From assembly GCA_016710965.1 (NCBI GenBank), contig JADJTW010000002.1, forward strand, positions 283,299 through 347,298: 64,000 nucleotides of DNA. The letters are read 5' to 3'. The position numbers and the translations under genes were made by a program. The notes under the pieces were generated by a model. The model did not search any database and was not told the origin of the DNA. It saw only the letters and a program-made list of their open reading frames with translations. Positions within the stretch are counted from its first letter, which is position 1, and each line of letters begins with the position of its first letter. Below are positions 2,275-64,000 of this stretch, one piece after another. Source of the DNA: Flavobacteriales bacterium (GTDB lineage Bacteria; Bacteroidota; Bacteroidia; Flavobacteriales_F; PHOS-HE28).

Positions 2275-2861
2275 GCCCTTGGTGCAAGGTAGGTGCGCAA
2301 CGTGGCGAGCACTCTGTGGGTGCGCATCTTGGCAGCGTCCTCGCTGGTGCCGAGCAACTGGCCCATTTCCGCGAAGCTCATCCCGTCCATGTAGCGCAAG
2401 TGGATCAGCTGCGCACGTTCTTCATCCAGCTTCGCCATGGCGCTGGCCAGGCGTCGCATCTCATCATCTTCCATGGGCAGTCCTATCTCCTCGCTGAGGC
2501 CGGCCACCTGCCGATAGCTAAGATCGATGAGCACTTCCTTGCGCTTGCGCCAGTGCATGCGCAATTCGTTCAGCGCGATACGGTAGAGCCAGGCCCTGAA
2601 GGGCAGTCCGCGATGCTGGTATTTGGGCAGCGCCAGCATGGCCTTCACGAACGTGTCTTGCGCGAGATCATTCACTGTCGGACGGTCGGGGCAGCGGCGC
2701 AAGAGGAAGCGGAAGACATCGGCGAAATAGCGCTCGTACAATACGGTGAAGCGCCGCGGGTCGGCTACAGCTGCCTGGATTTCAGCCCCTTCCTGTTCCG
2801 TTGTGTCCGCCACTATGCTAAGGAATGACCTCGAAGCCAATTGGTAACGCGCATCGCACAT
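2271..2861 (-). CDS. RNA polymerase ECF-type sigma-70 factor (true start probably the GTG near 2810)
   Basis: Region 2 and region 4 motifs: 'FTVLYERYFADVFRFLLRRC', 'RAWLYRIALNELRMHWRKRK', 'LRYMDGMSFAEMGQLLGTSEDAAKMRTHRVL'. Confidence 0.85.
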   Translation of the reverse strand: MCDARYQLASRSFLSIVADTTEQEGAEIQAAVADPRRFTVLYERYFADVFRFLLRRCPDRPTVNDLAQDTFVKAMLALPKYQHRGLPFRAWLYRIALNELRMHWRKRKEVLIDLSYRQVAGLSEEIGLPMEDDEMRRLASAMAKLDEERAQLIHLRYMDGMSFAEMGQLLGTSEDAAKMRTHRVLATLRTYLAPRA

Positions 2862-2983
2862 GAAATACGATGATCATCCGATGATCCATCGATCCCAGAG
2901 GTCGATCGGTCGGTAACCAACGATGGTTGGCCGCCTAACCTTCCACAACCGTCGCCGTATCAAGCCCGCTCATTCTCTGGACT

Positions 2984-9293: not shown

Positions 9294-12200
9294 TCGGAAC
9301 GCCTTGCGATGATCTCAACGCCGCGACCGGCAACGACACCTGGGATGCGAGCTGCACCTGCGTGGGACAACTGATCGATTGTACCGGTGTGCCCGGTGGA
9401 TCCAACCTCATCGGCACCGCGTGCGATGACGGCAACGCTTCCACGGGCAACGACACCTGGGATGCGAGCTGCACCTGCGTCGGTCAGCTCATCGATTGCG
9501 AGGGAACCGCTGGTGGTACTGCGTTGATCGGCAACGCCTGCGATGATCTCAACGCCGCGACCGGCAACGACACCTGGACGGCAAACACCTGGGATGCGCC
9601 TTGCACCTGCGTGGGACAACTCATCGATTGTACCGGTGTGCCCGGTGGATCCAACCTCATCGGCACCGCGTGCGATGATCTCAACGCCGCGACCGGCAAC
9701 GACACCTGGGATGCGACTTGCACCTGCGTCGGTCAGCTCATCGATTGCGAGGGAACCGCTGGTGGTACTGCGTTGATCGGCACATCCTGCGATGATCTCA
9801 ACGCCGCGACCGGCAACGACACCTGGGATGCGACTTGCACCTGCGTGGGACAACTCATCGATTGTACCGGTGTGCCCGGTGGATCCAACCTCATCGGCAC
9901 CGCGTGCGATGACGGCAACGCCGCCACCGGCAACGACACCTGGGATGCGAGCTGCACCTGCGTGGGACAACTCATCGATTGTACCGGTGTGCCCGGTGGA
10001 TCCAACCTCATCGGCACCGCGTGCGATGACGGCAACGCCGCGACCGGCAACGACACCTGGGATGCGAGCTGCACCTGCGTGGGACAACTGATCGATTGTA
10101 CCGGTGTGCCCGGTGGATCCAACCTCATCGGCACCGCGTGCGATGACGGCAACGCTTCGACCGGCAACGACACCTGGGATGAGCGCACCTGCGTGGGACA
10201 ACTCATCGATTGTCCGGTGTGCCCGGTGATCAGCCTCATCGGCACCGCGTGCGATGATCTCAACGCCGCGACCGGCAACGACACCTGGGATGCGACTTGC
10301 ACCTGCGTGGGACAACTCATCGATTGCGAGGGAACCGCTGGTGGTACTGCGTTGATCGGAACGCCTTGCGATGATCTCAACGCCGCGACCGGCAACGACA
10401 CCTGGGATGCGACTTGCACCTGCGTGGGACAACTCATCGATTGTACCGGTGTGCCCGGTGGATCCAACCTCATCGGCACCGCGTGCGATGACGGCAACGC
10501 CGCCACCGGCAACGACACCTGGGATGCGAGCTGCACCTGCGTGGGACAACTCATCGATTGTCCGGTGGCGCCGGGGGTCCAACCTCATCGGCACCGCGTG
10601 CGATGACGGCAACGCCGCACCGGCAACGACACCTGGGATGCGACTTGCACCTGCGTGGGACAACTCATCGATTGCGGGAACCGCTGGTGGTACTGCCTCA
10701 TCGGCACCCCGTGCGATGACCTCAACGCCGCGACCGGCAACGACACCTGGGATGCGACCTGCACCTGCGTGGGACAACTCATCGATTGTACCGGTGTGCC
10801 CGGTGGATCCAACCTCATCGGCACCGCGTGCGATGACGGCAACGCCGCCACCGGCAACGACACCTGGGATGCGACCTGCACCTGCGTGGGACAACTCATC
10901 GATTGCAAGGACAGTGTGCCTGGACAGCTCATCGGCACCCCGTGCGATGACCTCAACGCCGCGACCGGCAACGACACCTGGGATGCGACTTGCACCTGCG
11001 TGGGACAACTCATCGATTGCGAGGGAGCCCCCGGTGGTACCGCGCTGATCGGAACGCCTTGCGATGACGGCAACGCCGCCACCGGCAACGACACCTGGGA
11101 TGCGAGCTGCACCTGCGTGGGACAACTCATCGATTGTACCGGTGTGCCCGGTGGATCCAACCTCATCGGCACCGCGTGCGATGACGGCAACGCTTCCACC
11201 GGCAACGACACCTGGGATGCGAGCTGCACCTGCGTGGGACAACTCATCGATTGTACCGGTGTGCCCGGTGGATCCAACCTCATCGGCACCGCGTGCGATG
11301 ACGGCAACGCTTCCACGGGCAACGACACCGTCGGCGTGCGGCAACCTGGGATGCGACTTGCACCTGCGTGGGACAACTCATCGATTGTACCGGTGTGCCT
11401 GGGATCCAACCTCATCGGCACCGCGTGCGATGACGGCAACGCCGCGACCGGCAACGACACCTGGGATGCGACTTGCACCTGCGTGGGACAACTCATCGAT
11501 TGCGAGGGACCGCTGGTGGTACTGCGTCATCGGCACCGCCTTGCGATGATCTCAACGCCGCGACCGGCAACGACACCTGGGATGCGAGCTGCACCTGCGT
11601 GGGACAACTGATCGATTGTACCGGTGTGCCCGGTGGATCCAACCTCATCGGCACCGCGTGCGATGACGGCAACGCTTCCACGGGCAACGACACCTGGGAT
11701 GCGAGCTGCACCTGCGTGGGACAGCTCATGGGTAGTTCCGGTTGGCCGGGTGGATCCAACCTCATCGGCACCGCGTGCGATGACGGCAACGCCGCGACCG
11801 GCAACGACACCTGGGATGCGAGCTGCACCTGCGTGGGACAACTCATCGATTGCGAGGGAACCGCTGGTGGTACTGCGTTGATCGGCACATCCTGCGATGA
11901 TCTCAACGCCGCGACCGGCAACGACACTTGGGATGCGAGCTGCACCTGCGTGGGACAACTGATCGATTGTACCGGTGTGCCCGGTGGATCCAACCTCATC
12001 GGCACCGCGTGCGATGACGGCAACGCTTCCACGGGCAACGACACCTGGGATGCGACTTGCACCTGCGTGGGACAACTCATCGATTGCGAGGGAACCGCTG
12101 GTGGTACTGCGTTGATCGGCACATCCTGCGATGATCTCAACGCCGCGACCGGCCACGACACTTGTGATGCGACTTGCACCTGCGTGGGACAACTCATCGA

Positions 12201-13090
12201 TTGCGGGGAACCGCCGCATCGGCACCGCGTGCGATGACGGCAACGCTTCCACGGGCAACGACACCTGGGATGCGACTTGCACCTGCGTGGGACAACTCAT
12301 CGATTGTACCGGTGTGCCCGGTGGATCCAACCTCATCGGCACCGCGTGCGATGACGGCAACGCCGCCACCGGCAACGACACCTGGGATGCGAGCTGCACC
12401 TGCGTGGGACAACTCATCGATTGTACCGGTGTGCCGGGATCCAACCTCATCGGCACCGCGTGCGACGACGGCAACGCCGCCACCGGCAACGACACCTGGG
12501 ATGCGCTGCACCTGCGTGGGCAGCTCATGGGGGGGCCCGGTGGTACGGGGGTGGGATCCAACGCCGCGACCGGCAACGACACTTGGGATGCGACTTGCAC
12601 CTGCGTGGGACAACTCATCGATTGTACCGGTGTGCCCGGTGGATCCAACCTCATCGGCACCGCGTGCGATGACGGCAACGCCGCCACCGGCAACGACACC
12701 TGGGATGCGACTTGCACCTGCGTGGGACAACTCATCGATTGCGGGGACGCTGGTGGCTGCTGCGCGGGCGGTGCCAACGCCGCGACCGGCAACGACACCT
12801 GGGATGCGACCTGCACCTGCGTGGGACAACGTCGATTGGACCGGTGGGCCGGTGCGACATCCGGAACGCCTTGCGATGACGGCAACGCTTCCACCGGCAA
12901 CGACACCTGGGATGCGAGCTGCACCTGCGTGGGACAACTCATCGATTGTACCGGTGTGCCCGGTGGATCCAACCTCATCGGCACCGCGTGCGATGACGGC
13001 AACGCCGCGACCGGCAACGACACCTGGGATGCGACTTGCACCTGCGTGGGACAACTCATCGATTGCGAGGGAACCGCTGGTGGTACTGCC
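8880..13090 (+). repeat. tandem array of ~36 near-identical 117-bp units encoding a 39-aa Cys-rich repeat (consensus CTCVGQLIDC[T/E]G[VP/TA]GG[SN/TA]LIGT[A/P]CDD[G/L]NAATGNDTWDA[S/T]), coding, with numerous small indels
   Basis: The period is 117 bp, seen directly (e.g. 9301/9418/9535...). Two alternating unit variants occur. Indels fall at ~9110-9240, 10180, 10560, 10670, 11330, 11500, 12190, 12420, 12490-12560, 12720, 12830. Confidence 0.9.
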
Positions 13091-14075
13091 GTCATCGACA
13101 ACTGCGGCACCTGCGTCGGCGGTACCACTGGCAACATCGCCTGCACACAGGACTGCGCGGGCGTCTGGGGCGGTACAGCATTCCTCGACAACTGCGGCAT
13201 CTGCGTCGGCGGTACCACTGGCAACATCGCTTGCACACAGGACTGCGCAGGTGTCTGGGGCGGCACCGCCGTCACTGACAACTGCGGCAACTGCGTCGGT
13301 GGAACGACCGGCAACACGCACACAGGACTGCGCAGGTGTCTGGGGCGGCACCGCCGTCCTCGACAACTGCGGAACATGCGTCGGTGGAACCACTGGCAAC
13401 ACAGCTTGCACACAGGACTGCGCTGGCGTTTGGGGCGGCACCGCCGTCACTGACAACTGCGGAACATGCGTGGGCGGAACCACCGGTAACATCGCCTGCA
13501 CACAGGACTGCGCAGGAGTGTGGGGCGGCACCGCCGTCCTCGACAACTGCGGAACATGCGTTGGTGGCACTACCGGTAACGTTGCTTGCACTCAGGACTG
13601 CGCTGGCGTTTGGGGCGGAACAGCCGTCCTCGACAACTGCGGAACATGCGTCGGTGGAACCACTGGCAACACAGCTTGCACTCAGGACTGCGCTGGCGTT
13701 TGGGGCGGAACAGCCGTCCTCGACAACTGCGGAACATGCGTCGGCGGAACTACCGGCAACGTGGCCTGCACACAGGACTGCGCTGGTGTTTGGGGCGGAA
13801 CAGCCGTCACTGACAACTGCGCAACATGCGTCGGCGGAACGACAGGTAATGTCGCTTGCACACAAGACTGCGCAGGTGTTTGGGGCGGAACAGCCGTCAC
13901 TGACAACTGCGGAACATGCGTGGGCGGAACCACTGGTAACACAGCATGCACACAGGACTGCGCTGGTGTTTGGGGCGGAACAGCCGTCACTGACAACTGC
14001 GGAACATGCGTGGGCGGAACCACTGGTAACACAGCATGCACACAGGACTGCGCAGGCGTCTGGGGCGGAACGTCA
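13090..14075 (+). repeat. tandem array of ~10 x 99-bp units encoding a 33-aa Cys/Gly repeat (CTQDCAGVWGGTAV[LT]DNCGTCVGGTTGN[TIV]A), coding
   Basis: The period is 99 bp ('ctgcacacaggactgcgc' recurs at 13138, 13237, 13336...). A 5-nt deletion near 13315 switches the frame. Confidence 0.85.
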
Positions 14076-34215: not shown

Positions 34216-35043
34216 CTAGAACGCCAACCTACCCTGCTGCTCCATGGAGAGGCGCAACTGGCTCACCTCCTTGCGCAGTTCCACCACGCTGCGCGCCAGT
34301 TCATCGCGGCTCATGTTCGGCTCGGGCAATTCCGCGCTGATGAAGTGGACGAACTTCCAGATCTCGAGCACGTTGGCCACTGGCACCTCGTAAGGCGCGT
34401 AGAGCGGATTGGTGCTGCACAGGAGCAAATTGCCTTTGTCCTTCAATTGGTTGTACACCACTTTGAAGACGATACCGTCCTCCTTGGTCACCACGAGGTA
34501 AGGCTGGCCATCGCGGACGGTCTGCCAGTTCTGCACGTACTCGCCGGTCACCCACGATCCGTCGGCAACGGGCGGCATGCTGTCCCCGCTGATCTGGAAG
34601 GTGCGGTACTTGCGGTCCCGCGCCAGAAAAGGCATCTGGAAAGTGGGCAGGATGCTGATGTACTCCGGATCGGCGTAGCCCAGCGCATAGCCGGCCTTCG
34701 CCTTCTCGGGCACCAGTTCCACGTTCTCGCGGTCCTCGCTGTTCACGGTGGTGGCCAGCACGCGCAGGCGACGACCACTGAGATCGATGTCGCCGCCACG
34801 CTCGATCACCCCGATCTGGCTTTCGCTCAGTGCGGTGAGGTCATCGCGCAGCAACTTGTCCACGCTGACCTTGAAGTATTCGCTCATGCGCACGAGCAGA
34901 TCGAACGACGGCTCGGCGCTGCCGTTCTCATAGCCGCTGTAGCTGGAGCGTTTCACTTCAAGGGCGATGGCCGTTTCCTCCTGGGAACGGCCGCGACGGG
35001 AGCGGAGCAATTTGATATTGGCTCCGAAGACTGCGTTTGCCAT
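34216..35043 (-). CDS. XRE-family HTH transcriptional regulator fused to S24 (LexA/CI-like) peptidase domain
   Basis: ATG at 35043. HTH 'NIKLLRSRRGRSQEETAIALEVKRSSYSGYENG'. C-terminal S24 region 'ISGDSMPPVADGSWV...LVVTKEDGIVFKVV'. Confidence 0.8.
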   Translation of the reverse strand: MANAVFGANIKLLRSRRGRSQEETAIALEVKRSSYSGYENGSAEPSFDLLVRMSEYFKVSVDKLLRDDLTALSESQIGVIERGGDIDLSGRRLRVLATTVNSEDRENVELVPEKAKAGYALGYADPEYISILPTFQMPFLARDRKYRTFQISGDSMPPVADGSWVTGEYVQNWQTVRDGQPYLVVTKEDGIVFKVVYNQLKDKGNLLLCSTNPLYAPYEVPVANVLEIWKFVHFISAELPEPNMSRDELARSVVELRKEVSQLRLSMEQQGRLAF

Positions 35044-35095
35044 GTTGAGTGGGGTTCTGTTTGTGCCTAGGGCTGTCTGGTGCGATCTGCTGGGC

Positions 35096-35668
35096 TTATG
35101 CCTCGTGTGGCCTGAAGCCGATGGTCTTGCGTGACTGCTCGGCAGGCGAGACCATGGCCGTGATATGATCGAAGAGGGTTTGGATCTCCTCATCGTGCCC
35201 ACCGACGTGAGCTTCCAACTGCTCCAACTTCTGGAGGTTCTCCCGATGCGAGAGGAGCACTTCGCGCATGCGGGTGAACACGCGGATGATCTGGATGTTG
35301 ACCAAGATGGCCTGCTCGCTGTTCAACACACTTGAAAGCATGGCCACGCCTTGCTCGGTAAAGGCCATGGGGAGGTACTTGGTGTGCGCTCCTTGCTTTA
35401 AGGTGCCAAATTGGCTCCTTAGAAAATCGTTCTCTTCTTCAGTGAGTTCGAACATGAAATCCTCCGGGAATCGGCCCAGGTTCCTGCGCACCTGCCGCTT
35501 GAGTTGTTTGGTGTCCACCCCGTAGAGCTCGGCCAGATCGCGGTCCAGCATCACCTTCTGCCGACGCAGAACATGGATACGACCCGTGATAGCCACGTCG
35601 GCTGGGGGCGCTGCCTTGTAAGGAGCGGGCGGTTCCATTGCCAGGGTATCCGTCAAGGTGGTGTGCAT
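35096..35668 (-). CDS. ORF6N (KilA-N-like) domain protein, copy 1
   Basis: 'ITGRIHVLRRQKVMLDRDLAELYGV.TKQLKRQVRRNLGRFPEDFMFELT', '...SQFGTLKQG..KYLPMAFTEQGVAMLSSVL'. Confidence 0.75.
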   Translation of the reverse strand: MHTTLTDTLAMEPPAPYKAAPPADVAITGRIHVLRRQKVMLDRDLAELYGVDTKQLKRQVRRNLGRFPEDFMFELTEEENDFLRSQFGTLKQGAHTKYLPMAFTEQGVAMLSSVLNSEQAILVNIQIIRVFTRMREVLLSHRENLQKLEQLEAHVGGHDEEIQTLFDHITAMVSPAEQSRKTIGFRPHEA

Positions 35669-35712
35669 GGTCCTTGTTATTGTCGAATAGCTGCCTGTTG
35701 CCTTGCTGATCC

Positions 35713-36336
35713 TCACGCATCATCGGGTTTGAAGCCGATGGCCTTGCGCTGTTCAGGCTGCGAGACCATGGCCGTTAGATGATCGAAGAGGGCTTGGATC
35801 TCCTCGTCATGTCCACCCACACGGGCTTCCAACTGCTCCAATTTCTGGAGGACATCCCGGTTCGAGAGCAACACTTCGCGCATGCGGGCGAACACGCGGA
35901 TGATGTGGATGCTCACCACGATGGCCTGCTCGCTACGCAGCACATTGGCCAGCATGAGGATACCATGCTCGGTGAAAGCGAAGGGGGCGTACTTAATGTT
36001 CTGTCCTTGTTTCAAGGTCGCAAATTGCGACCTTGAAACTCCTTCAGGTCCAATGGTATCATCCCTTTGGCCCTGGTTCAAGGTCACAATTTGTGACCTT
36101 GAAATTTCCGCCTCCTGCACAGTCAGTTCGAACATGAAGTCCTCGGGGAAGCGCTCCATGTTCCGGCGCACCTGCTCTTTTAGTCGCTTCACCTCAACCC
36201 CATAGAGTTCGGCGAGGTCGCGGTCCAGCATCACCTTCTGGCCACGCAGAACATGGATACGGCCCGTGATGGCGACGTCGGCTGGGGGCGCTGCCTTGTA
36301 AGGAGCGGGCGGTTCCATTGCCAGGGTATCCGTCAT
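35713..36336 (-). CDS. ORF6N (KilA-N-like) domain protein, copy 2, with in-frame 22-codon internal duplication
   Basis: Paralogous to copy 1 (identical 'MEPPAPYKAAPPADVAITGRIHVLR'). It contains 'SRSQIVTLNQGQ...SRSQFATLKQGQ' duplicated. Confidence 0.75.
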   Translation of the reverse strand: MTDTLAMEPPAPYKAAPPADVAITGRIHVLRGQKVMLDRDLAELYGVEVKRLKEQVRRNMERFPEDFMFELTVQEAEISRSQIVTLNQGQRDDTIGPEGVSRSQFATLKQGQNIKYAPFAFTEHGILMLANVLRSEQAIVVSIHIIRVFARMREVLLSNRDVLQKLEQLEARVGGHDEEIQALFDHLTAMVSQPEQRKAIGFKPDDA

Positions 36337-36458
36337 GATCTTGGCCTGTTATCCGGCACAAGTATATGGCCAATTACCCGGAATGATACCGACGGATAAT
36401 CCGTCAACAGGTTTCTGTTGATCTGAATCGGGCACTTGAACCTTGGCTTCTAACTGTC

Positions 36459-38849
36459 CTATGCCTCGGTGGCCTCCCGCTTCACCCAAGCCTGCACCAT
36501 CCTCAGTTGCCCGTAGCTGAAACGGCCGTCGAAGTAGCCTTGCGCGGCGTTGAGCCCCTGGTCCTTGTTCTCCCGCATCCAGCTGGCAATGAGGTCGCGC
36601 TCGGCCTCGGGCATCAGGCCATGGATCTCCAGAACGCCCTCTGCTATGCCGCGCGCAAAATGCCCCTCGATGGTGGTCTTCGCCATCTGGCGCTTGGCGG
36701 CAATTTCCTCCAGCTTCAATCCCTCCTTCACCAACCCATAGGTGACGTTGTAGGTATTGCCGATCTCTTCCTTGGTACGACGTGATGTACGACCCTTTCC
36801 ACCATCACCAAGGATATCATCCAAGCTCGACCGCTTCCGCTTCTTGCCGCTCTTGGTGCTCGCCTTCGGCCTGTGCTCTTCCGCCCATGCACGTACCTCT
36901 CCTACCATCGCGGCGCGCTTCGCGGCCAGGCCCTGTTCGATGTCGGCTTGCTTCTTCACTTCTTCTCCGTTGTGAATACAGGTAGTGAGGTAGCCCACCT
37001 TGGCGATGGTGGCCACCTTCTTCATCAGCATGCCATCGATCTCCTTCAGCGCGTTGGTGTATTCCTTGGTCTTGCTGAGCATCTCGGCCTGTGCCATGTG
37101 CTGGAAGAGCGACTTCATCTGCTTCTGCAGCATGTCGCCGTAATACGCACCGCCCTTCTCGATGCGCACCAGCAATTCATCGCGCTTGTCCTCGTGCAGC
37201 AGGCGAATCAGTTGCCCACGGAACTTCTGCGTATTCTCTTCTTCGCTGCGAAGCTTCTCCCGGAAAAGCATCAGCGCGGTCTTCATGCTCTCGTCCTCGA
37301 ACTCGGCCGTTTCCGGATGGTCCTTCTGCGTGTACTCCACCTTCCGCAGCATGTCGCTGAAGTCGAAGGTGCCTGCGAGCAGCAGTTTCAAATACTCGCG
37401 CTGACTGGCCTTCAATTGCTGCGGAAGCGGTTCTTGCTCAAAGCCCCGGTTGGTGAAAGCAACCACATCCCTATCGCTGCTTACCACGCTGGTATCGATG
37501 CGCGTACGGAGTATCAATCCATCCAGCGAGCGCAAACGTGATAGCGCGACATACACCTGGCCGGGTGCGAAGGCGGAGCCCACGTCGATGATAGCCTTGG
37601 TGAAGGTGAGGCCCTGGCTTTTGTGTACGGTGATGGCCCATGCGAGCTTGATGGGATACTGCTCAAACGTTCCGAGGACTTCTTCGTCCTGTTGCTTGGT
37701 GCTCGCGTTCACCACGTAGCGCTTGTTCTCCCAGATCTCACGCTTCAACTTGTACGGCTCGCCGGTATCCATGCGCACCATGATGCCATCCTTGTCCAGC
37801 GACTCCACCTTGGCAAGCTTGCCGTTGAAGTAGGCCTTCTCCATGTCGTTCTTCACGAACATGACCTGCGCGCCCACTTTCAGCTCGACACGTGAGAGCA
37901 CCGGATACATGCTCTCCGGAAAATCGCCCTCCACCTCGGCCTCGAACGTGTGCGACTTGCCGGGCAGTTGGGCCAGCGCGCGCTGGTTCAAGTCGTCGGC
38001 CTTGTAGTTGTGGGTGGTCAATGTGATCACCCCTTCGCTATCCTCGGTCGTGATCTCCGGTTTGTAGTGCTTGTTCAGTTCGGCCACGTCCTCCTGCGTG
38101 ACGGTGTTGTTGCGCAGGTTGTTGAGGATGTGGATGAAGTTGCCATCCTGTTGCCGGAAGATCTTGTCCAGCTCGATGTGCGCGTAGCCGTGCTCGCGGA
38201 TCACCTTGCTCTCGAAGAAGTGCGGGCTGGCGTACCAACGCTTCAGCACGCGCAGCTCATCGTCCTTCACCACGGGTGGCAACTGGTAGAGATCGCCGAT
38301 GAGCAGCACTTGCGCACCACCGAAGCTCTGGTAGCGGTTCTGGCGCACAGCCCGCATGCGAAAGTCGATGGCATCGAGCAGGTCAGCACGCAGCATGCTC
38401 ACCTCATCAATGATGAGCAGGTCCACTTCGCGCAGCACATTGCGGCGAATGGCATTCAATGGATGTCTTCGCGTGAGCGTGTCCTGGTCGTGGAACTGGC
38501 CGGTGATGTCAGCCGGCAATTGCCGCTCCGGGATGAATGATCCGAAGGGCAGCAGGAATTGCGAGTGGATGGTGACGCCCTTGGCGTTGAGCGCTGCGAT
38601 GCCTGTTGGCGCCAGGATCACATAACGCTTGTGCGTGCTGGCAGCAAGCTGATGCAGGAAAGTCGTCTTGCCAGTGCCCGCCTTGCCGGTGAGGAAGACG
38701 TGCCGGTTCGTGCTGTTGACAAAGCGCGCGGCCAGTGTGGCCATCTCGGTCTCTTCCAGCAGTTCGCCCGTCATCGGGCGCAAGTTCGCGCTCACAGGCG
38801 CAACGGAAGAACGGACCGTGGAGGGGGTACCAACTACTTCAACGGACAT
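36459..38849 (-). CDS. PIF1/RecD-like AAA helicase with C-terminal helix-turn-helix domain
   Basis: Walker A 'FLTGKAGTGKTTFL'; 'LLIIDEVSMLRADLLD'; 'LLIGDLYQLPPV'; 'AWAITVHKSQGLTF...VYVALSRLRSLDGLIL'; C-terminal HTH region. Confidence 0.85.
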   Translation of the reverse strand: MSVEVVGTPSTVRSSVAPVSANLRPMTGELLEETEMATLAARFVNSTNRHVFLTGKAGTGKTTFLHQLAASTHKRYVILAPTGIAALNAKGVTIHSQFLLPFGSFIPERQLPADITGQFHDQDTLTRRHPLNAIRRNVLREVDLLIIDEVSMLRADLLDAIDFRMRAVRQNRYQSFGGAQVLLIGDLYQLPPVVKDDELRVLKRWYASPHFFESKVIREHGYAHIELDKIFRQQDGNFIHILNNLRNNTVTQEDVAELNKHYKPEITTEDSEGVITLTTHNYKADDLNQRALAQLPGKSHTFEAEVEGDFPESMYPVLSRVELKVGAQVMFVKNDMEKAYFNGKLAKVESLDKDGIMVRMDTGEPYKLKREIWENKRYVVNASTKQQDEEVLGTFEQYPIKLAWAITVHKSQGLTFTKAIIDVGSAFAPGQVYVALSRLRSLDGLILRTRIDTSVVSSDRDVVAFTNRGFEQEPLPQQLKASQREYLKLLLAGTFDFSDMLRKVEYTQKDHPETAEFEDESMKTALMLFREKLRSEEENTQKFRGQLIRLLHEDKRDELLVRIEKGGAYYGDMLQKQMKSLFQHMAQAEMLSKTKEYTNALKEIDGMLMKKVATIAKVGYLTTCIHNGEEVKKQADIEQGLAAKRAAMVGEVRAWAEEHRPKASTKSGKKRKRSSLDDILGDGGKGRTSRRTKEEIGNTYNVTYGLVKEGLKLEEIAAKRQMAKTTIEGHFARGIAEGVLEIHGLMPEAERDLIASWMRENKDQGLNAAQGYFDGRFSYGQLRMVQAWVKREATEA

Positions 38850-55609: not shown

Positions 55610-56055
55610 CTACTTCCCGAACGCCTCGTTCCGGTGCCACTCCAGGAATTCGGCCTTGGGGCCAAGGCCTCCGCCGGAAAGATCAGTGGCTTGTCTTCGT
55701 AGGATTGGAAGTGTTGGGCTACGGTCGCGTGAGCGAACTGGTCGCCCCGGATGAAACTCAGGGGCAGGCTCGCGAAGGGGCGCAGACGAGGCGTAGCTCG
55801 GTATCGAATCCGGCTTCGCCAAGGCTACGTCGGATAAGAGGTGATGAGGCCGCCGTCGAAGGCGCGGAGGTGGAGGGCATCGAGCACACTACAGGTCGAA
55901 CTCCTTCGTTCGCTTCGTTCGTCCGTTCGGCGCCATGAACACCAAGCGGTAGGTCCCTGGCAGGAGTGGGCCACTATCCCTCGGATGGTGGTACGCGTCC
56001 CACCTCCCCAATTCCAAGTTGAACACCTCCTTGCGATAACTCCATGACCCCGCAC
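55610..56055 (-). pseudogene. degraded partial duplicate of the 3' part of the HNH_2 nuclease gene at 56323..56802
   Basis: Nucleotide homology of 55610..55900 with 56340..56560 (e.g. 'gaagtgttgggc[c/t]acggtcgcgtgagcgaa[g/c]tggtcgc'). Peptide remnants 'LDALHLRAFDGGLIT' and 'KAEFLEWHRNEAFGK'. Confidence 0.45.
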
Positions 56056-56322: not shown

Positions 56323-56802
56323 TCAGCCTTGGAAGCGGTAATGCCTTCGATGCCACTCCAGGTATTCGAGCTTGGGGCCCGCCGCTTCGGCGGGAATGGC
56401 CATTGGCTTGACTTCGCAGGTTTTGAAGTGTTGGGCCACGGTCGCGTGAGCGAAGTGGTCGCGCAGCGAAGGGGCACAGACGAGGCATAGCTCGGTATCG
56501 AAGGTGATGAGGCCGCGATCAAAGGCCTTGTCGTGAAGGGCGTTGAGGGCGATCGTTCTGTGGGTCGAGGCGTGTTGCTCGGCGGCGTTCCATGGAATGA
56601 CCCCGCCAAATGCGCGGGGCAAGTTGTGCGAAGCCACCAACAGATCGCGCACGGCCAGACCGGTCACGGCGCAGCGGCCCATGTACGCATTGAGCACCGC
56701 TTGGCGGAAGTAGCGTTGGCCGCGCCGCACCTTCACGGATCCGTGTGGTTCATGTCCGCGGGGAACGGGCGATCGTGAGGCAGGACCAACCGTTCCTCGT
56801 TC
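56323..56802 (-). CDS. HNH_2-family nuclease domain protein (possibly N-terminally decayed)
   Basis: 'RYFRQAVLNAYMGRCAVTG...ASHNLP...NALHDKAFDRGLITFD'. The track ORF extends to 56952 and overlaps the start of the next gene. Confidence 0.5.
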   Translation of the reverse strand, partial: ERGTVGPASRSPVPRGHEPHGSVKVRRGQRYFRQAVLNAYMGRCAVTGLAVRDLLVASHNLPRAFGGVIPWNAAEQHASTHRTIALNALHDKAFDRGLITFDTELCLVCAPSLRDHFAHATVAQHFKTCEVKPMAIPAEAAGPKLEYLEWHRRHYRFQG

Positions 56803-58525: not shown

Positions 58526-58637
58526 AGATGCGCGACACGCTACGCGCAGATGGGGGGAAGGATGTACCACTTCCGCATACGTGCCCTCCTCGCCGCTGGG
58601 GAAGGACCCTTCAGGGGGCGACCTGCTACTGGCCGGG

Positions 58638-59279
58638 CTAAGCGGTCTGCGGCGGAAGGTCCCAAGGCTTCACGTTGCCACCGGGTGTGCGGGTATGGCG
58701 CAGGCTATCCGCCCGCTGCTGGTCCAAACGGTCCATTTGTTCCTGTTGATCATCGAACAGCTTGCCGTGGTCCACGAAGGTGATGAGCTGCACCACCTGC
58801 TGGGGTACCGCCCAAGTGCCGATGATGTAGCCGTGGGTCACGCCGACGCGCACTTCGTCGTTGTCCAGGCAGTACTCCATGCCGAAGTCCATGTTCTCGC
58901 GGATGAACTCCTTCAAACGAAAGAAGCCATCTTCCGTGCTGTTGAAGCGTTCGGCGTACTGTTCCAGCACATGGTGGCTGATGTGGTAGCACACACCATC
59001 CTGCATGATGCGTGCAGCCCGGTAATAGCCATCGGTACCGCGGTACCATACGAAGGGCACGATGTTCAGCACCTTCTTGGTCGGCAGCATGGCGATGAGC
59101 CAGTTGTTCCCCTCGTGCGAGCGGTACTCGAACAGCTGCGGCTCCATGCGCAGGGACTTATCCACGCGCATCCGCCGCTGCAACCGCTCAATGGGCTCCT
59201 TCAGCTTGTTCCACATGGCGGGCAGGTCGCGAAAGGCTTCGCGCACCACCTGCTCCGGGCTATGTGTTTGAACGATCAT
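58638..59279 (-). CDS. hypothetical protein (no recognisable family)
   Basis: 213-aa ORF with protein-like composition, divergent from the low-GC gene at 59473. Confidence 0.5.
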   Translation of the reverse strand: MIVQTHSPEQVVREAFRDLPAMWNKLKEPIERLQRRMRVDKSLRMEPQLFEYRSHEGNNWLIAMLPTKKVLNIVPFVWYRGTDGYYRAARIMQDGVCYHISHHVLEQYAERFNSTEDGFFRLKEFIRENMDFGMEYCLDNDEVRVGVTHGYIIGTWAVPQQVVQLITFVDHGKLFDDQQEQMDRLDQQRADSLRHTRTPGGNVKPWDLPPQTA

Positions 59280-59472
59280 GGCTCGCGGCCTTGAACGGAC
59301 AACGGGGAGACGGGGTTCCTTGGTATGGGGTATCGGGCGGTCGGAAGATGCAGGGTCGCCGAAGACAGGAGACCGTGCGAAGGCCTAAAGGGGGCAGATG
59401 GGGCAGGTGTTCTACCTTCGATTCAGATAAGAGAGAGGGGCACCTTTCCGTCATTCAGAACAAATCCTTCAC

Positions 59473-60216
59473 ATGGAACCAATGGATCCAAAGACGGTTG
59501 AACACATAATAGACGCGGCCAAATTCGTGCTGCCATCTGTCGTGATTCCATTGGTCATCATTGCTATGAACAATGCTCACAACAGAAAGACAAGAGCTTC
59601 GGAACAGGCCTTTCAACTAAGCATGGTTTCTGCGGAGAAGAACGTCGCGTCAGAGTTCACGGTACAGGAGGAGCGGCGCGTTCATGAAAAGGAAGTTTAC
59701 GCGTCCATGCTAAAGATCCTGTTCGAAGTACAGAGGTTGCATATCGACCTCTCTGGAAACTGTGTGGACTACAAGTGCATTGACTCCGCTGTTTCGAACT
59801 TCAAGATCGCGCTGACAACGTATCAAGCAAGAATCTCCGACAATCAGATCTATCTAACCCCTGAAGCAACAAATGAGCTGTATGGATTCTATCAGCAAGT
59901 TGGTGACCTCCTTACCGAACTGAAAGAGATACAGGATAAACAGAAGTATCACTTGGCTATAGCAAGCGTTTACTACAACTCGAGAGAACTTGCTATGGCA
60001 ACGCTGCTGCTACGCATCAATTTTGCCGACGTAACAGCGCCGCAGGATGAGGAGGGAGTAGCAGAAGAATTGGCAGTGAAGTACAAGAACTTCATCAATT
60101 GTTGTGGCAGAGTTCCCCGTCTGGCGATCATGAAGGAGTATGAAGAATTCACGCCTGAAGTAGCTGAAAGCTTAGATGAGAAGAGGATGGAAACAGAGGA
60201 ACTCCGAACCAACTAG
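59473..60216 (+). CDS. hypothetical N-terminally membrane-anchored protein encoded in a low-GC (~43-45%) segment
   Basis: TM '[15 protein letters not shown]'; GC much lower than the surrounding >60%. Confidence 0.55.
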
Positions 60217-60430
60217 CTTTTCGCCGGTGTGCATGAGCGTTTCGTAGTAGAGACTTTTCTTATGGATGCGGCTGCGCTGGTACATGGTCTCCATGGCGCC
60301 GAGCACGCCACCGCGTTCGGTGATGCGGTCGAACTCGGTGAGCACCCCGGCTCGGAGGCCGGGGCAGGCTCTTTCTTCCACCAGGTCGGTGAGCTCTTCG
60401 ATGATGAAGGAGCCTTCGCGGGTTCTCGTT
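60216..60430 (-). pseudogene. internal fragment (~70 aa) of a B12-dependent acyl-CoA mutase (methylmalonyl-CoA-mutase-like) gene
   Basis: '[17 protein letters not shown]...[34 protein letters not shown]' resembles the mutase segment 'LTDELEEKAW..IDEMGGMVKAIESGYPQREI..AYRYQREVESGEK'. It is bounded by stops on both sides. Confidence 0.4.
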
Positions 60431-60495
60431 CTTGGCCATCGGACTTACCGATACGTCAACTATTATTTACCTTACCCCCCCGGAACAAAAGAGCC

Positions 60496-60678
60496 ATGAA
60501 GTGCAGTGAACTGATGCGAAAGCTCCAACGAGACGGTTGGTTCATCGTCAGGCAGCGCGGTTCGCATGTACTTATGGAACACCCGACCAAGAAGGGCCAG
60601 GTGGTAGTGCCGGACCATGGCTCGAAAGAACTGGCGTCCGGCACGGCCCGAAGCATCATCAAGAAGGCAGGACTTTGA
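60496..60678 (+). CDS. hicA: type II toxin-antitoxin system HicA-family toxin
   Basis: 'MKCSELMRKLQRDGWFIVRQRGSHVLMEHPTKKGQVVVPDHGSKELASGTARSIIKKAGL' (the YcfA/HicA 'GSH' motif). Confidence 0.85.
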   Translation: MKCSELMRKLQRDGWFIVRQRGSHVLMEHPTKKGQVVVPDHGSKELASGTARSIIKKAGL

Positions 60679-60689
60679 AACGAACGACC

Positions 60690-61106
60690 ATGAAGACCGC
60701 AAAGCGAAAGCAAGCCCCGGAAAAGACCTACCCCTTCATCGTGGAGTGGACCAAGACCGGTTTCTCCGCCTACTCGAAGGATCACGCCGTGGCCACTACC
60801 GGCGAAACGTTGAACGAGTTGCGCAGGAACGCCGCCGAAGCATTGGGTCTTTTGCTCGACACCCCGCGCAAGAAGGTGACGGCGAAGCAGATCCACTTCT
60901 TCATGGACATGCGCTACTTCTTCAAGCAGTACCGCGTTCTCAACGCGCGGCAATTGGCGCATCGCATCGACATGAACCACACCCTGCTCTCGCAATACGT
61001 GAGCGGCGCGAAGATGCCTTCAGAGGAACAGACCGAGCGTATCCTCTTGGGAATACGGAAGGTGGCGAAAGAGTTGGCGAGTGTGTCATTGTCGCCACAC
61101 AACTGA
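60690..61106 (+). CDS. hicB: type II toxin-antitoxin system HicB-family antitoxin (with C-terminal HTH)
   Basis: 'TYPFIVEWTKTGFSAYSKDHAVATTGETLNELRRNAAEAL' HicB/UPF0150 fold, plus a C-terminal DNA-binding region. Confidence 0.85.
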   Translation: MKTAKRKQAPEKTYPFIVEWTKTGFSAYSKDHAVATTGETLNELRRNAAEALGLLLDTPRKKVTAKQIHFFMDMRYFFKQYRVLNARQLAHRIDMNHTLLSQYVSGAKMPSEEQTERILLGIRKVAKELASVSLSPHN

Positions 61107-61151
61107 CCGTCTGGCCGTACGATCGTCACTCATGGCATCTGCCCGGCGAAC

Positions 61152-61790
61152 TCAGAGGCAAATGCGGCGCTCTGCCGTACGGCAGACCATCACCGCGTAC
61201 TCGGGATCCATGCCGTTGCTGAAGTAAGTTGAGGCTTTGCGAAATCCCGCCTTAGCGGGAAAGCTCAGGTTGGGCGCGAAGGCGTTGATGTCCATGCCCC
61301 GGCTCAGGTAGTACTCCATCCCGGTTCGTTGACCGGGACAGGCTCCGGTGAAGCCGTTGGCCAGCGTGAAGGCGAGCTGGCTGATGGGGTTGGCGCCGGC
61401 CTCCGCAGCGCCTGCCCCGGCCAGCGAGCCGGGGTGGTAACCGCTGATGCTGACGCTGTAGAAGTTGCGGATGTTGTTGGCGATGAAGTGCTCTTGCACA
61501 TCGCCCATCAAACGCAGCGCGAACTCGGTGCTGAAGATCGTCGTTCTGCGCCTGGTGGTTATGCCCGCCCTGAACTTGTCGAAGGATTGGGCGTGCCCCT
61601 CGCTCACGCACATAACCCCGCGCGGGTCGCGTGCTGCGCTGTAGCCGGACTTGTCAGGGCCAGCGGCTGCGGCACTCAGGGGCCACTCCTTCGTCGTGCC
61701 TCCTCGTTGCTCGCCTCCGCAAGGCCCTGCCCGCACCGGGCTGCCGCTTCGCCCGCTCACGCAAAACCTTGCCGCAAGGAATACTCGCAA
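61152..61790 (-). pseudogene. remnant of the same acyl-CoA mutase gene (segment around the 'SISGYH' substrate-domain signature), lacking N- and C-terminal parts
   Basis: 'TIFSTEF...[15 protein letters not shown]...[18 protein letters not shown]...[13 protein letters not shown]' versus mutase 'TIQNDILKEF...MPKFNSISISGYHMQEAGA..IEMAYTLADG...GLNVDQFAPRLSFF'. hicAB lies between this and the 60216..60430 fragment. Confidence 0.4.
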
Positions 61791-61801
61791 CTAGAAGAGA
61801 C

Positions 61802-62536
61802 CTACCGACAAGGCAGGATGGTTGCAGAAGTGGGCATCTTACCAGGTTTCTCACCAATGTCCCAGCCTGGCGTGGTCACTTCCGAATAGTAGTAGTCCGT
61901 GTTCTCGTATTCGTAGCGCGTGTCTCGATGGAGCTTGGTTCTAGGGTGTATCCCAACCGCCATGTGTCCAGGGTACTGTAGGAGGACGCACCGGATGCCC
62001 AGAGCCTTGAGCAATGCCACGAGCAGCAGCGACTTGTCTCCACAATCTCCGGCACCTCCTCCGTTGATCAGTGTCTGCACCGCGTATTGCTGGTAATCCA
62101 CGCTCTGCGGACCGCCAGGGACTCGATTAGGGGTCCAGTAAGTCAAGGACTGCACGAATGAAAGCGCGACTTTCTCGACCGGCAGGGAGAGTGTAGTTGC
62201 GCGTTCCCGGATGACGCCTGCAAGAACATCGACATCGGACAGGTATGGATCCTTGCGCACATACTGAGCATAGTAGTTCCTTTCCCGGTGCTCAGGAAGT
62301 TTCCGGTAGTGCTCGAGCATTTTGAACAACCCACGCTGAAATACCAGCGTCAAGGTCATGTCGATGTCATTCCCATCGAACCCATAGTTCCAGTTGTACT
62401 CGATGGTAGTCCTGACGTCGGATTGATCCGCTAAAGGGCTTGCCGGGGAGCGCAATGGAGCAGTTGACCAAGCCGTGCAAGCAAGCCTCAACGGCAAGTG
62501 AAGAGTCCGCAGTATCGGTGGTGGTTGTCGCGTCAT
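61802..62536 (-). CDS. transglutaminase-like (TGc) cysteine-protease-fold domain protein
   Basis: 'GGGAGDCGDKSLLLVALLKALGI...YPGHMAVGI' Cys/His core. Confidence 0.6.
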   Translation of the reverse strand: MTRQPPPILRTLHLPLRLACTAWSTAPLRSPASPLADQSDVRTTIEYNWNYGFDGNDIDMTLTLVFQRGLFKMLEHYRKLPEHRERNYYAQYVRKDPYLSDVDVLAGVIRERATTLSLPVEKVALSFVQSLTYWTPNRVPGGPQSVDYQQYAVQTLINGGGAGDCGDKSLLLVALLKALGIRCVLLQYPGHMAVGIHPRTKLHRDTRYEYENTDYYYSEVTTPGWDIGEKPGKMPTSATILPCR

Positions 62537-62596
62537 CGGAGATTAGGTTGCGAATTGAAGTAGCAAACTCGGAAGGCCCGGACAGCCCACGCTGGT

Positions 62597-63430
62597 CTAG
62601 TCCGCCCACCAAACTGAAAGAATTCGGTAGCTGCAATTCTCCCCGGACTTGAACGTACAATGCTCTGTGCCAATCGACTCAGCATCTTGAGCTTCAACAA
62701 GCTCCTTGCCAGTGGATACGTGATCGCCCTTCCAGTCTAAGCTCTCGTACTTCACCCAAATTGCCCTAGATGGATGTTGGTTCTTAATGAAGAACTCGAA
62801 CTGATAGGCCAAGAACTGACCCTCCGCGAACTCCTTCTTCACGTAGACATAGTCAATGGCTGACTTTGTCGGAGTAGGCCTTGGTTTGGGAGTAGAGGTC
62901 GGTCTGGGTCTGTCTGCTTCCGGTCTCTCGGTCATCCAAGGAGGAAGGTCGGGGTTGAGCGGTGGCGGATTGAACGGGACGTAGGGATCGCTGCACGAAA
63001 GGGTGTAGGTGTAATCGTCGTACTGCTGGGTATCGATCTGCCTGAAGCACTCGACATGCCAGTCTTTGGGTTCATTCGCGAAACGAAAGTTCCCATCGTA
63101 GAACTTCACGGATCGCACACGCCAGCAATGACTATTGTCGCCGTCCCATTCAAATCGGCCATCCCCAGACTCAGCAAAGAAATAGTAGTAGCGATGGGTC
63201 AAATTGCCGCCTTGTGAAACTACCGTCTCTCCAGGCTTGGCGTTGAACCATCCTTCGGTAACCCAGACCTTTTCGACAGTGCTGAAGTAGCGCAGCGCAA
63301 TGCTCACGTCCGCATTGCAGTCGTTCTTAAAACGTAGGGCAGCGTTCGCCGGAACATTTGTGATGGCGGCAGCGCCGATCGAAAAAGCCCAGAAGGTGAG
63401 CGATTCCTTGCTCAAGCTAAGGTTCAACAT
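62597..63430 (-). CDS. secreted hypothetical protein, N-terminal DUF1036-like domain; lower-GC segment
   Basis: Signal peptide; 'CN.DVSIALRY......WVTEGWFNAKPGE...HRYYYFFAES.DGRFEWDGDNSHCW'. Confidence 0.5.
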   Translation of the reverse strand: MLNLSLSKESLTFWAFSIGAAAITNVPANAALRFKNDCNADVSIALRYFSTVEKVWVTEGWFNAKPGETVVSQGGNLTHRYYYFFAESGDGRFEWDGDNSHCWRVRSVKFYDGNFRFANEPKDWHVECFRQIDTQQYDDYTYTLSCSDPYVPFNPPPLNPDLPPWMTERPEADRPRPTSTPKPRPTPTKSAIDYVYVKKEFAEGQFLAYQFEFFIKNQHPSRAIWVKYESLDWKGDHVSTGKELVEAQDAESIGTEHCTFKSGENCSYRILSVWWAD

Positions 63431-63472
63431 GTTGGTGCGGTGTGATTCTGACAGATGAGGCCAATGCTCCTG

Positions 63473-64000
63473 TTAGTTCAAGCCCAGGAAAACCTTGTGG
63501 ACCCACGCTTCCTTACCAGCGGTGAGAGTGACAATGCACAGCCCGTTGACTGAAATTGGCATCGGAACGGCAAGCTCGCCGAGAGGCAATCGGACACTCT
63601 CGATGGCATGTAGCAATGATCCGTTCAGCGAATAGATCTTCATCGAAGCCGTTCTCTCAGTGTCGGAGATCAGGACGAGACCGATCGCAGTGGAACGAAC
63701 AGTGACACTACCACTCTGACCGCTTCGAACCTTCTCGCGCGCTATTTCGATCGGGTCATCGTCCAAAACCATTTGGGTTGAGTTCGTCAGCCGGGCGATC
63801 CTCCCTACCGCTAGGCTACCGAACTGTGCAAATGAGCCTACCACAACAAGCCCACCGTTGCTCTGACGCACGATACCATTGACGGCCGATGAAGCACCTG
63901 TGCTAGCATTCAATGTGTTGTCCACCGCGCCGCTCGTTGTAAGGCGCACGATCCGTGTCTTGGCGCTGGTATTGAACTGTGTGAAGTTCCCAACCAGGAT
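63473..64000 (-). CDS. 3' end of a delta-60-repeat protein with T9SS type A sorting domain (N-terminus beyond window end)
   Basis: C-terminal 'MKIYSLNGSLLHAIESVRLPLGELAVPMPISVNGLCIVTLTAGKEAWVHKVFL'; upstream 'GLVVVGSFAQFGSLAVGRIARL' delta-60-like. Confidence 0.65.
   Translation of the reverse strand: MLVGNFTQFNTSAKTRIVRLTTSGAVDNTLNASTGASSAVNGIVRQSNGGLVVVGSFAQFGSLAVGRIARLTNSTQMVLDDDPIEIAREKVRSGQSGSVTVRSTAIGLVLISDTERTASMKIYSLNGSLLHAIESVRLPLGELAVPMPISVNGLCIVTLTAGKEAWVHKVFLGLN

Follow-up and report, generated by a model that had tools for sequence, protein, structure and literature searches.

The stretch analysed here, called the window, comprises 64,000 nucleotides of contig JADJTW010000002.1, part of a wastewater metagenome-assembled genome (MAG) that the NCBI record labels Flavobacteriales bacterium (locus tags IPL52_, proteins MBK8497520-24). 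Toward its right end lie two pieces of an icmF gene, which codes for the fused isobutyryl-CoA mutase IcmF, and between them, on the opposite strand, a hicAB toxin-antitoxin (TA) module. A conserved non-coding leader stands before the pieces, short palindromic insertions occur within them, a MITE-like insertion (MITE, miniature inverted-repeat transposable element) abuts hicB, and a segment of low GC content lies at their far end. The coordinates of all features are collected in Table 1. An earlier note on this DNA, made by a model from the letters alone, had read the region as a B12-dependent mutase gene disrupted by the TA module; comparison with related loci (numbered L001, L002, and so on) leads us to a different origin.

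The minus-strand open reading frame (ORF) at 61152-61790 contains the mutase blocks SISGYH, AFTLANG, and FAPNLSF (PF01642, E 3.5e-10), and a later block ending in ...TGEK lies in the minus-strand ORF at 60172-60381, in agreement with the earlier note, which was also right to place plus-strand hicA and hicB (60496..61106; HicA, PF07927 E 6.5e-22) between two mutase remnants. The mutase is, however, of the IcmF type and not the classical methylmalonyl-CoA mutase (MCM) to which the note had likened it. In a comparison with the PDB, the remnant matches residues 762-859 of IcmF 4xc6 with an E value of 6e-29 and 104 bits, as against 1.7e-6 and 31 bits for human MCM. A tblastn search with the intact 1194-residue IcmF of L001 gave two matches above noise in the 64 kb, one of residues 843-942 (61550-61167) and one of residues 1040-1097 (60417-60220); for residues 1-842 there was none. 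DNA alignments push the ends of the remnant beyond these limits, to about 61586 and about 60447.

The remnant is an IcmF-derived pseudogene fragment under relaxed selective constraint. PF01642, the catalytic mutase domain, is interrupted, being matched only at profile positions 169-253 and 382-429 of 512, and the fused B12-binding and MeaB-like G-protein domains were not found in the window. Approximately 255 of the 1194 codons are left, and they carry two 2-nt deletions and, following RRICL, a premature stop codon; where hicAB sits, residues 943-1036 (about 94 codons) are lacking, and the remnant is cut at residue 1097, the point (60220) from which low-GC DNA replaces the distal end of the mutase, as the note had supposed. 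Because so small a part of the gene remains, interrupted and without the B12-binding and G-protein parts, it does not qualify as a gene. Outside the inserts it is about 90% identical to the IcmF of its clade. The ratio of nonsynonymous to synonymous differences (pN/pS) is 0.23-0.27 between the remnant and intact relatives and 0.03-0.06 between pairs of intact genes at similar pS (residues 847-942), which indicates the relaxation of constraint.

The nearest database matches to the remnant are short ORFs on related contigs. The fragment is found behind all or part of the leader in at least seven related MAG or metagenome contigs (L001, L002, L003, L004, L087, L095, and L192), and its neighbors differ between these loci. 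The leader is 93% identical to that of the window in L001, 90% in L004, 89% in L192, and 85% in both L095 and L002. In L004 it stands on both sides of the fragment in inverted orientation, at 1012-1188 (+) and 2662-2820 (-), like terminal inverted repeats. IcmF homology itself begins at ...DQAQN (residue ~839) only in the window, L002, and L003, as seen in one alignment; in L001 and L004, a later deletion took the stretch of the fragment up to residue 865. That the loci share the leader junction but not the neighbors points to a single ancient event, after which the DNA around the fragment turned over. The fold of the leader (61587-61762) is not significant and no Rfam family matches it; no tRNA lies in the window and nothing in 56-64 kb matches Rfam, and on these grounds a structured RNA or tRNA was rejected as the integration target.

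In three of these relatives, the fragment can be placed relative to another copy of icmF. L001 (GCA_016277765.1, 176 kb) has a complete icmF of 1194 codons at 2084-5668 and, 4.3 kb downstream and co-oriented with it, a second, partial copy at 9925-11487, whose identity to the intact gene of the same contig is 97-98%. In L003, an uninterrupted icmF 3' end (98% identity) comes first, followed by 6.5 kb of unrelated genes and then by the fragment, and L002 likewise starts with an uninterrupted icmF 3' end (92% identity), followed by cargo and the fragment. The fragments of L001-L004 are free of hicAB and are already frameshifted or interrupted by indels and an insert of ~185 nt. The intact icmF of L001 also contains, at about 4400-4440 and just upstream of the conserved RPKYHGEIPEGNDG motif, runs of the 7-nt repeat AATCAGC, which in frame give peptide repeats of the ISNQQSAISN type that L006 and other IcmFs lack.

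A scan of species-representative genomes gave 80 Bacteroidota icmF loci, which were searched with an nhmmer profile built on the terminal ~85 nt of the gene and ending exactly at the stop codon. Extra copies of these last ~28 codons occur in only two of the 80, the two nearest relatives, L005 (Bacteroidetes sp. RBC078) and L006 (Flavobacteriales bacterium VAR_34). Direct repeats of the icmF 3' end bound inserted DNA in L001, L002, L005, and L006 and are not seen in the window. The units between the repeats are 0.3-1 kb long and hold one or two small ORFs in the same orientation as icmF; the contents include a DUF2281 and PIN pair in L005 and a DUF4160/DUF2442-like pair in L006, the latter judged from motifs in the sequence. 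This architecture is integron-like but the sites are not attC-like, because the repeat folds no better than shuffles (z -0.30 and +0.10 on the two strands) and no integrase lies nearby. Integron attC sites were rejected because the repeat does not fold, and no integrase domain that would mark an intI beside the array was found in the ORFs scanned (those of the window, of L005 on either side of icmF, and a few of L001 and L006).

The hicAB module is toxin first, and hicB begins 11 nt past the stop codon of hicA. HicA matches 57 of 58 positions of PF07927 with 77.8 bits (cut-off 27) and carries the G-S-H motif. HicB matched no HicB model of Pfam or NCBIfam, but its gene lies directly downstream of hicA and a DNA-binding C-terminal domain is predicted: HTH_31 is matched there below threshold (E 0.0036), and Xre helix-turn-helix (HTH) structures are matched at probabilities of 0.9-0.98. 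An AF2 model (pLDDT 73.5) has a β-β-β-α-β N-terminal domain and a helical HTH, and its top Foldseek match is Escherichia coli HicB3 (6u0i; probability 0.90), although the match is weak (E 0.02, TM 0.31). NCBI names the pair HicA toxin and XRE regulator. HicAB pairs are type II TA systems in which HicA is an RNase toxin and HicB an antitoxin and repressor; by analogy, hicAB here probably stabilizes the variable segment or contributes to phage defense, as the TA cassettes of the relatives would.

The same arrangement, hicAB within the icmF remnant, is present in L085-L089 with 89-95% identity. In L085 and L089, part 2 of the remnant runs on to the icmF stop codon, and the truncation at 60220 is therefore not common to them. 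An ORF of 126 codons for a retropepsin-like or aspartyl-protease-like protein (Asp_protease_2, weak) lies 3' of hicB in L085-L088, the contig of L089 ending just after its start; it is missing from the window, which has 140 nt where the relatives have ~577 nt. Outside any remnant, L212-L214 contain a counterpart of the unit 60459-61087 with 84% identity; the L212 copy is on the strand opposite to icmF, 9.4 kb downstream of it. hicAB is therefore a discrete module that moves within the zone. A sequence of ~100 nt that occurs twice in the window (55610-55726 and 56345-56443) is 76-80% identical to the DNA directly upstream of hicA in L212-L214; on the minus strand, its copies resemble the C-terminal end of a small protein (...YEGKPLTIPAEAAGPK.EYLEWH...).

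The MITE-like element is represented in the window by one end. In its complete form, ~185 nt long, it interrupts icmF-derived sequence at residue ~945 in three relatives (L001, L003, and L192) and at residue ~1087 in L195; L001 and L192 also have part of another copy in tandem. The fetched loci, ~2.1 Mb in all, showed the element in icmF-derived DNA only.

Relative to intact icmF, the remnant has five short insertions, each with a GC-rich hairpin or palindrome (InsA, InsC, InsE, InsF, and InsG; +24, +24, +33, +6, and +24 nt). Their presence is polymorphic: InsA is found in the window and L002-L004 but not in L001; InsC is in the window, L003, and L004 and not in L001 or L002; and InsE is identical in the window and L002, has one mismatch in L085-L087, and is absent from L001, L003, and L004. 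Because the L001 fragment is so similar to its own intact gene, inserts could be erased by gene conversion. Further inserts of +12 and +21 nt occur in L003 and L004 and still more in L085-L087, and +20 and +17 inserts are also seen among the relatives. InsF is the 16-bp palindrome to which the earlier note had drawn attention; it is perfect (8+8) at the site given there (61171..61186) but is within part 1 of the remnant rather than between the two remnants. It belongs to a family, TC[CT]GCCGTACGGC[AG]GA, that occupies five different positions in the icmF remnants of the window, L085-L089, and L195 and also has members in four contigs unrelated to icmF. A 20-bp palindrome, CCTGCCTGCCGGCAGGCAGG, in L002, one base shorter in L088, is located at the exact nucleotide of the break at 60220, and this coincidence with the junction between remnant and low-GC segment suggests that palindromes may be preferred entry points for larger DNA.

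InsA, InsC, and InsG form one 24-nt family, GCCTGYCCCGGYCNNCGARCCGGG, which occurs in both orientations and shows a compensatory stem change; the DNA fold of InsG has an energy of -12.3 kcal/mol (z -3.65). With three mismatches allowed, the window has three copies of the motif, where 0.01 would be expected, and each of them is in the remnant. It was also found in at least 120 metagenome contigs, and four of the matches listed are in icmF. Among the matches listed, 41 of 123 occurrences are in long ORFs with high GC at third codon positions (GC3), 21 of them in the PGS(G/A/E)AGAG frame and 5 in the ACPGLRAG frame. The hairpin, GCCTGCCCCGGCC-NN-CGAGCCGGG, stands in frame, typically encoding PGSGAGAG, in otherwise intact housekeeping genes, clear cases being those for dihydrolipoyl dehydrogenase (Lpd), GatA, class III alcohol dehydrogenase, and acyl-CoA synthetase; the best PDB homolog of the Lpd of L170 lacks seven residues exactly at the hairpin site. 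Several of the contigs enclose the motif in longer palindromes of the repetitive extragenic palindromic (REP) type, e.g. CGTAGCA[element]GGTGGCTACG. The elements are concentrated in icmF-derived DNA. All five insertions of the window are multiples of 3, and its three 24-nt copies are in codon phase 0. Since the length of the element equals 8 codons, in-frame insertion needs no selection, and the frame bias in real genes presumably reflects tolerated peptides.

Several origins of these insertions were considered and set aside. They are REP-like in being a multi-copy family of short GC-rich hairpins whose stems fold, but dispersed extragenic copies and a REP-associated tyrosine transposase (RAYT) were not found in the 64 kb, and the scanned ORFs yielded no Y1 transposase. 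A genome-wide REP population was rejected for the 64 kb, where perfect hairpins number 46 versus ~36 in shuffles and the 24-nt motif is restricted to the remnant. Local fold-back or quasi-palindrome correction was rejected as the main cause because one 24-nt sequence recurs at several sites, in either orientation, and in contigs that are unrelated, but such correction may contribute to InsF. An assembly artefact was excluded by the recurrence of the inserts in independent JGI, ENA, and NCBI assemblies. A literature search found nothing relevant on the element sequence, on PGSGAGAG, or on icmF as an attachment site; the elements may be described under another name.

We consider it probable that the remnant is a displaced icmF 3' end in a hypervariable integration hotspot, later invaded by hicAB, the MITE-like element, the mini-palindromes, and the low-GC gene. 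The icmF stop codon would be a hotspot for foreign DNA in this clade, and direct repeats of the terminal ~85 nt of the gene would flank each addition. An older event would have left a ~1.1-kb copy of the icmF 3' end (residues ~839-1194) behind the leader. With a complete icmF upstream, such a copy would no longer be needed and, freed from selection, may have become a sink for mobile DNA. It would have received the five REP-like mini-palindromes, the MITE-like element, of which 50 nt remain, and hicAB, with loss of residues 943-1036, and the 864-bp low-GC segment would have cut it at residue 1097, at the site of the 20-bp palindrome of two relatives. If the remnant is a displaced 3' end, then hicAB entered DNA that was already dead and killed no working gene. 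The right end of the window is predicted to be the variable zone downstream of an icmF that lies on the minus strand just beyond position 64000. This reading follows from the synteny of a 213-residue hypothetical gene with L005 and from the atypical composition of 59.3-64 kb: window positions 58637-59355 are 85% identical in DNA to L005 18499-19217, and in L005 the matching gene stands 7.4 kb downstream of icmF and has the same orientation relative to it.

Some observations weigh against this interpretation. The window contains no 85-nt icmF-end repeat (best nhmmer E 7) and no intact icmF (tblastn with the L001 IcmF), and the closest IcmF clusters, examined by cluster accession, yielded no intact icmF of the same MAG. 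Because repeat and intact gene are both missing, membership of the window in the hotspot is argued from the remnant and the homology of the 213-residue gene. Pfam recognized no integrase or transposase among the large ORFs scanned (those of the window; those of L005 within 7.6 kb upstream and within ~8 kb downstream of icmF; the two L001 genes between icmF and fragment; three L006 cassette genes). The mechanism of recombination is putative. The right-hand hicAB junction of the window differs from that of L085-L087, which have the extra 126-codon gene, so the order of events is uncertain. Finally, the neighbors of the fragment differ at every locus, which would also fit a fragment that moves.

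Such movement is the basis of the alternative that fares best, although we regard it as unlikely: the leader and a captured piece of icmF would travel between genomes or sites as passengers of a mobile element, and their link to a resident icmF would be incidental. Besides the differing flanking genes, the inverted leaders of L004 are consistent with this, and the near-identity of the L001 fragment to its resident icmF, when other fragments diverge, could mean separate acquisitions. However, wherever the sequence suffices (L001, L002, and L003), the fragment is preceded on its own strand by an icmF 3' end without interruptions, turnover of cargo at the icmF stop codon accounts for the differing neighbors, gene conversion explains the L001 identity equally well, and no transposase was found with the fragment in the ORFs scanned. 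Disruption in situ, in which hicAB broke a complete working mutase gene at this site and both termini were removed later, was the proposal of the earlier note and is very improbable. The two pieces that enclose hicAB are indeed collinear and on the same strand, with 94 codons missing exactly there, and no intact mutase was found in the 64 kb or, for this MAG, in the clusters examined. Yet only residues ~839-1097 were ever present, no trace of the first ~830 codons lies beside the fragment at any of the other loci (seven or more) where it follows the same leader among different neighbors, and the hicAB-free fragments of L001-L004 had already decayed. For the relatives, an intact icmF elsewhere in L001 and the conservation of hicAB within the remnant in L085-L089 form the pattern on which the note itself had been prepared to give up disruption. 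Least probable is that the icmF piece is or was translated, as a former working 3' end or as a separate product: the multiples of 3, the codon phase, and a pN/pS below 1 speak for it, but the two 2-nt deletions, the stop after RRICL, the loss of residues 943-1036, the cut at residue 1097, and the +20 and +17 inserts of relatives speak against it, and the length of the 24-nt element by itself gives in-frame inserts.

Table 1. Features of the window and of related loci; positions without a locus number are those of the window.
Feature	Position	Strand	Remarks
icmF remnant part 1, IcmF residues ~839-942	61167..61586	-	2-nt deletion near residue 845
icmF remnant part 2, IcmF residues ~1037-1097	60220..60447	-	2-nt deletion (frameshift); PF01642 E 0.0078; DNA alignment to nine relatives
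Conserved non-coding leader, ~175 nt	61587..61762	-	Precedes remnant in relatives
hicAB module	60459..61106	+	hicA 60496-60678, hicB 60690-61106
MITE-like insert, 50-nt left end of ~185 nt	61108..61157	-	Abuts hicB end; complete in relatives
InsA, +24 nt	61410..61433	+	24-nt family, opposite orientation; encodes PGSLAGAGA
InsC, +24 nt	61320..61343	-	24-nt family; encodes GACPGQRTG
InsE, +33 nt	61227..61259	-	Hairpin CCCGC-TAAG-GCGGG; encodes 11 residues
InsF, +6 nt net	61171..61186		16-bp perfect 8+8 palindrome TCTGCCGTACGGCAGA; inside remnant part 1, residues ~936-942
InsG, +24 nt	60346..60369	-	24-nt family GCCTGYCCCGGYCNNCGARCCGGG; encodes RACPGLRAG
213-residue hypothetical gene	58638..59279	-	MBK8497521; 59.7% GC, GC3 0.82; first gene of normal GC on the left
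Low-GC segment, 864 bp	59356..60219		Left limit, end of L005 homology; right limit, exact nucleotide of remnant break
247-residue protein MBK8497522 (IPL52_01570)	59473..60216	+	ORF within low-GC segment
Transglutaminase-core-like gene, 244 residues	61802..62536	-	PF01841 E 2.6e-4, 21.7 bits, cut-off 23 (sub-threshold); GC3 0.64
DUF1036 protein, 277 residues	62597..63430	-	PF06282 E 2.4e-12, 47.9 bits, cut-off 23; GC3 0.64
158-residue ORF	63473..63949	-	One weak DUF5122 β-propeller repeat, PF17164 E 0.001, below cut-off; GC3 0.61
85-nt icmF-end repeat, L006	L006:1746-7522		At least 9 copies in 5.8 kb (nhmmer)
85-nt icmF-end repeat, L005	L005:11012-12765		4 copies (nhmmer)
85-nt icmF-end repeat, L002	L002:523-9450		4 copies (nhmmer)
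85-nt icmF-end repeat, L001			2 copies (nhmmer)
85-nt icmF-end repeat, other 78 Bacteroidota icmF loci			1 copy each (nhmmer)
MITE-like element in relatives	L001:10366-10584 and 10632-10747; L003:7471-7690; L192:385-604; L195:355-537		
126-residue Asp_protease_2-like ORF (weak)	L085:1777-2157; L086:1037-1417; L087:754-1134		
In-frame 24-nt hairpin loci	L170:5633-7063; L125:1-1170; L120:1661-3277; L144:298-1494; L155:1401-3101	- (L170, L120, L144)	

The composition of the region supports the view of the earlier note that it is a mosaic of compositionally foreign DNA. GC falls to 0.45 in sliding 300-nt windows, the low-GC segment has 47.7% GC versus 60.7% for window positions 1-56000, and the atypical composition extends over everything from 59.3 to 64 kb. 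The note had put the GC of the flanking genes above 60%, which applies to neither flank: the 213-residue gene on the left falls just short of that value, and the genes on the right (transglutaminase core (TGc)-like, DUF1036, and DUF5122-like) have 54% GC and GC3 of 0.61-0.64, lower than the 0.69-0.85 of most other large high-GC3 ORFs of the window. The DUF1036 assignment of the note holds well above the cut-off. The TGc-like protein has the GDCGDKS...PGH motif and scores 21.7 bits for Transglut_core (gathering score 23); its gene is where the note had put it, but it is merely an upstream neighbor and not a replacement of the mutase N terminus, with a terminator-like hairpin and the conserved leader standing between the gene and the remnant. 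Both genes are likely cargo. The 213-residue gene has no match in Pfam, NCBIfam, or PADLOC.

The 247-residue protein encoded in the low-GC segment is a member of a small uncharacterized family, with 44 homologs at E < 1e-3 among 1.84 billion representatives (~25-57% identity, mostly 25-42%) and no consistent Pfam family across 27 family members. Its AF2 model (pLDDT 88.6) is all-helical, with a long hydrophobic helix at the N terminus and, after it, a four-helix bundle, and a fold search gave only weak, non-diagnostic matches of the Tar/Tsr type (E 0.13). An exact-protein look-up of the contig records returned no entry for the products of hicA or of this gene. PADLOC models of defense systems found nothing besides a weak HicA-like match.

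Two other parts of the window are of separate interest. At 34216-38849, a CI/LexA-like repressor (HTH_3 and Peptidase_S24), two ORF6N-domain proteins, and a PIF1-like helicase are clustered, and two perfect palindromes of related sequence (36009-36039 and 36077-36103, with stems of 15 and 13 bp) lie in the 5' part of the second ORF6N gene (35713-36336); the cluster may be a prophage or mobile-element remnant with operator sites. At 9209-13453, long ORFs overlap on both strands (711 and 628 residues on the minus strand; 453, 318, and 440 on the plus strand); their GC3 values are similar (0.68-0.76), Pfam gives next to no signal, and the coding strand is ambiguous.

Taken alone, the islet is ordinary bacterial genome flux, and for annotation the mutase pieces should be treated as a displaced fragment and not as a lost metabolic function. 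A broader interpretation, tentative and on balance doubtful, links two readings. (i) The 24-nt hairpin and the 16-20-bp palindromes may be undescribed ultra-small mobile or templated insertions, 8 codons long and in frame in the 24-nt case, that enter housekeeping genes of many GC-rich bacteria and pile up in icmF-derived dead DNA. (ii) The icmF stop codon may be the anchor of an integron-like platform for tiny cassettes without promoters, with the unfolded 85-nt repeat in place of attC, and the sites at which larger DNA enters may be marked, or created, by the palindromes; the low-GC segment entered exactly at one such site. A conserved B12-enzyme gene appears to anchor a cassette array in abundant Flavobacteriales of activated sludge, which would be a non-integron route to the same architecture. 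The palindromes of 16-33 nt are polymorphic among close strains and, in the dehydrogenase and GatA genes named above, in frame in housekeeping genes; if they are mobile, they would be among the smallest known protein-remodeling elements and a natural marker of sites at which foreign DNA enters.

The components of the locus are of known kinds, i.e. an integration hotspot, a pseudogene remnant, and a TA module, and the unusual variants are the icmF-anchored array of tiny cassettes and the in-frame 24-nt palindromes. Intact IcmF (PDB 4xc6 and 8ssl) combines B12-binding, MeaB G-protein, and mutase domains, which in the relatives' genes appear as PF02310, PF03308, and PF01642. The remnant resembles the part that matches 4xc6 but differs in lacking the first two domains and in containing five mini-insertions, two frameshifts, and hicAB. 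The TA module resembles the type II HicAB systems of E. coli (HicAB, 6hpb; HicB3, 6u0i) in its gene order, its 11-nt gap, and its HicA with PF07927 and the G-S-H motif, and its modeled HicB appears to share the β-rich N-terminal domain and the C-terminal Xre-type HTH; unlike known HicB, it matches no HicB sequence model and the fold match is weak, the pair being known here from sequence and models.

REP sequences and bacterial interspersed mosaic elements (BIMEs) are RAYT-associated, GTAG-tagged palindromic repeats, and Rickettsia palindromic elements (RPEs) are insertions of ~100-150 bp found in frame within genes. The mini-palindromes are like these in forming families of short GC-rich hairpins with compensatory stem changes in both orientations, and the 24-nt elements, like RPEs, stand in frame in coding genes. 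At 16-33 nt, however, they are far shorter than RPEs, and within the window they are confined to the icmF remnant instead of being spread through intergenic DNA. The arrays of the relatives differ from integrons in having no adjacent integrase, a repeat without an attC-like fold, and, as anchor, the last 85 nt of a protein-coding gene, and the window differs from tandem-integration systems in having none of these repeats. In the relatives, direct repeats of the target 3' end bound each unit, as in tandem site-specific 3'-end integration, integron-like arrays, and clusters of attC sites lacking an integrase (CALINs) with TA cassettes. As in integrons and CALINs, too, the arrays consist of small co-oriented cassettes, mostly annotated without function and with some TA pairs among them, next to one fixed neighboring gene.

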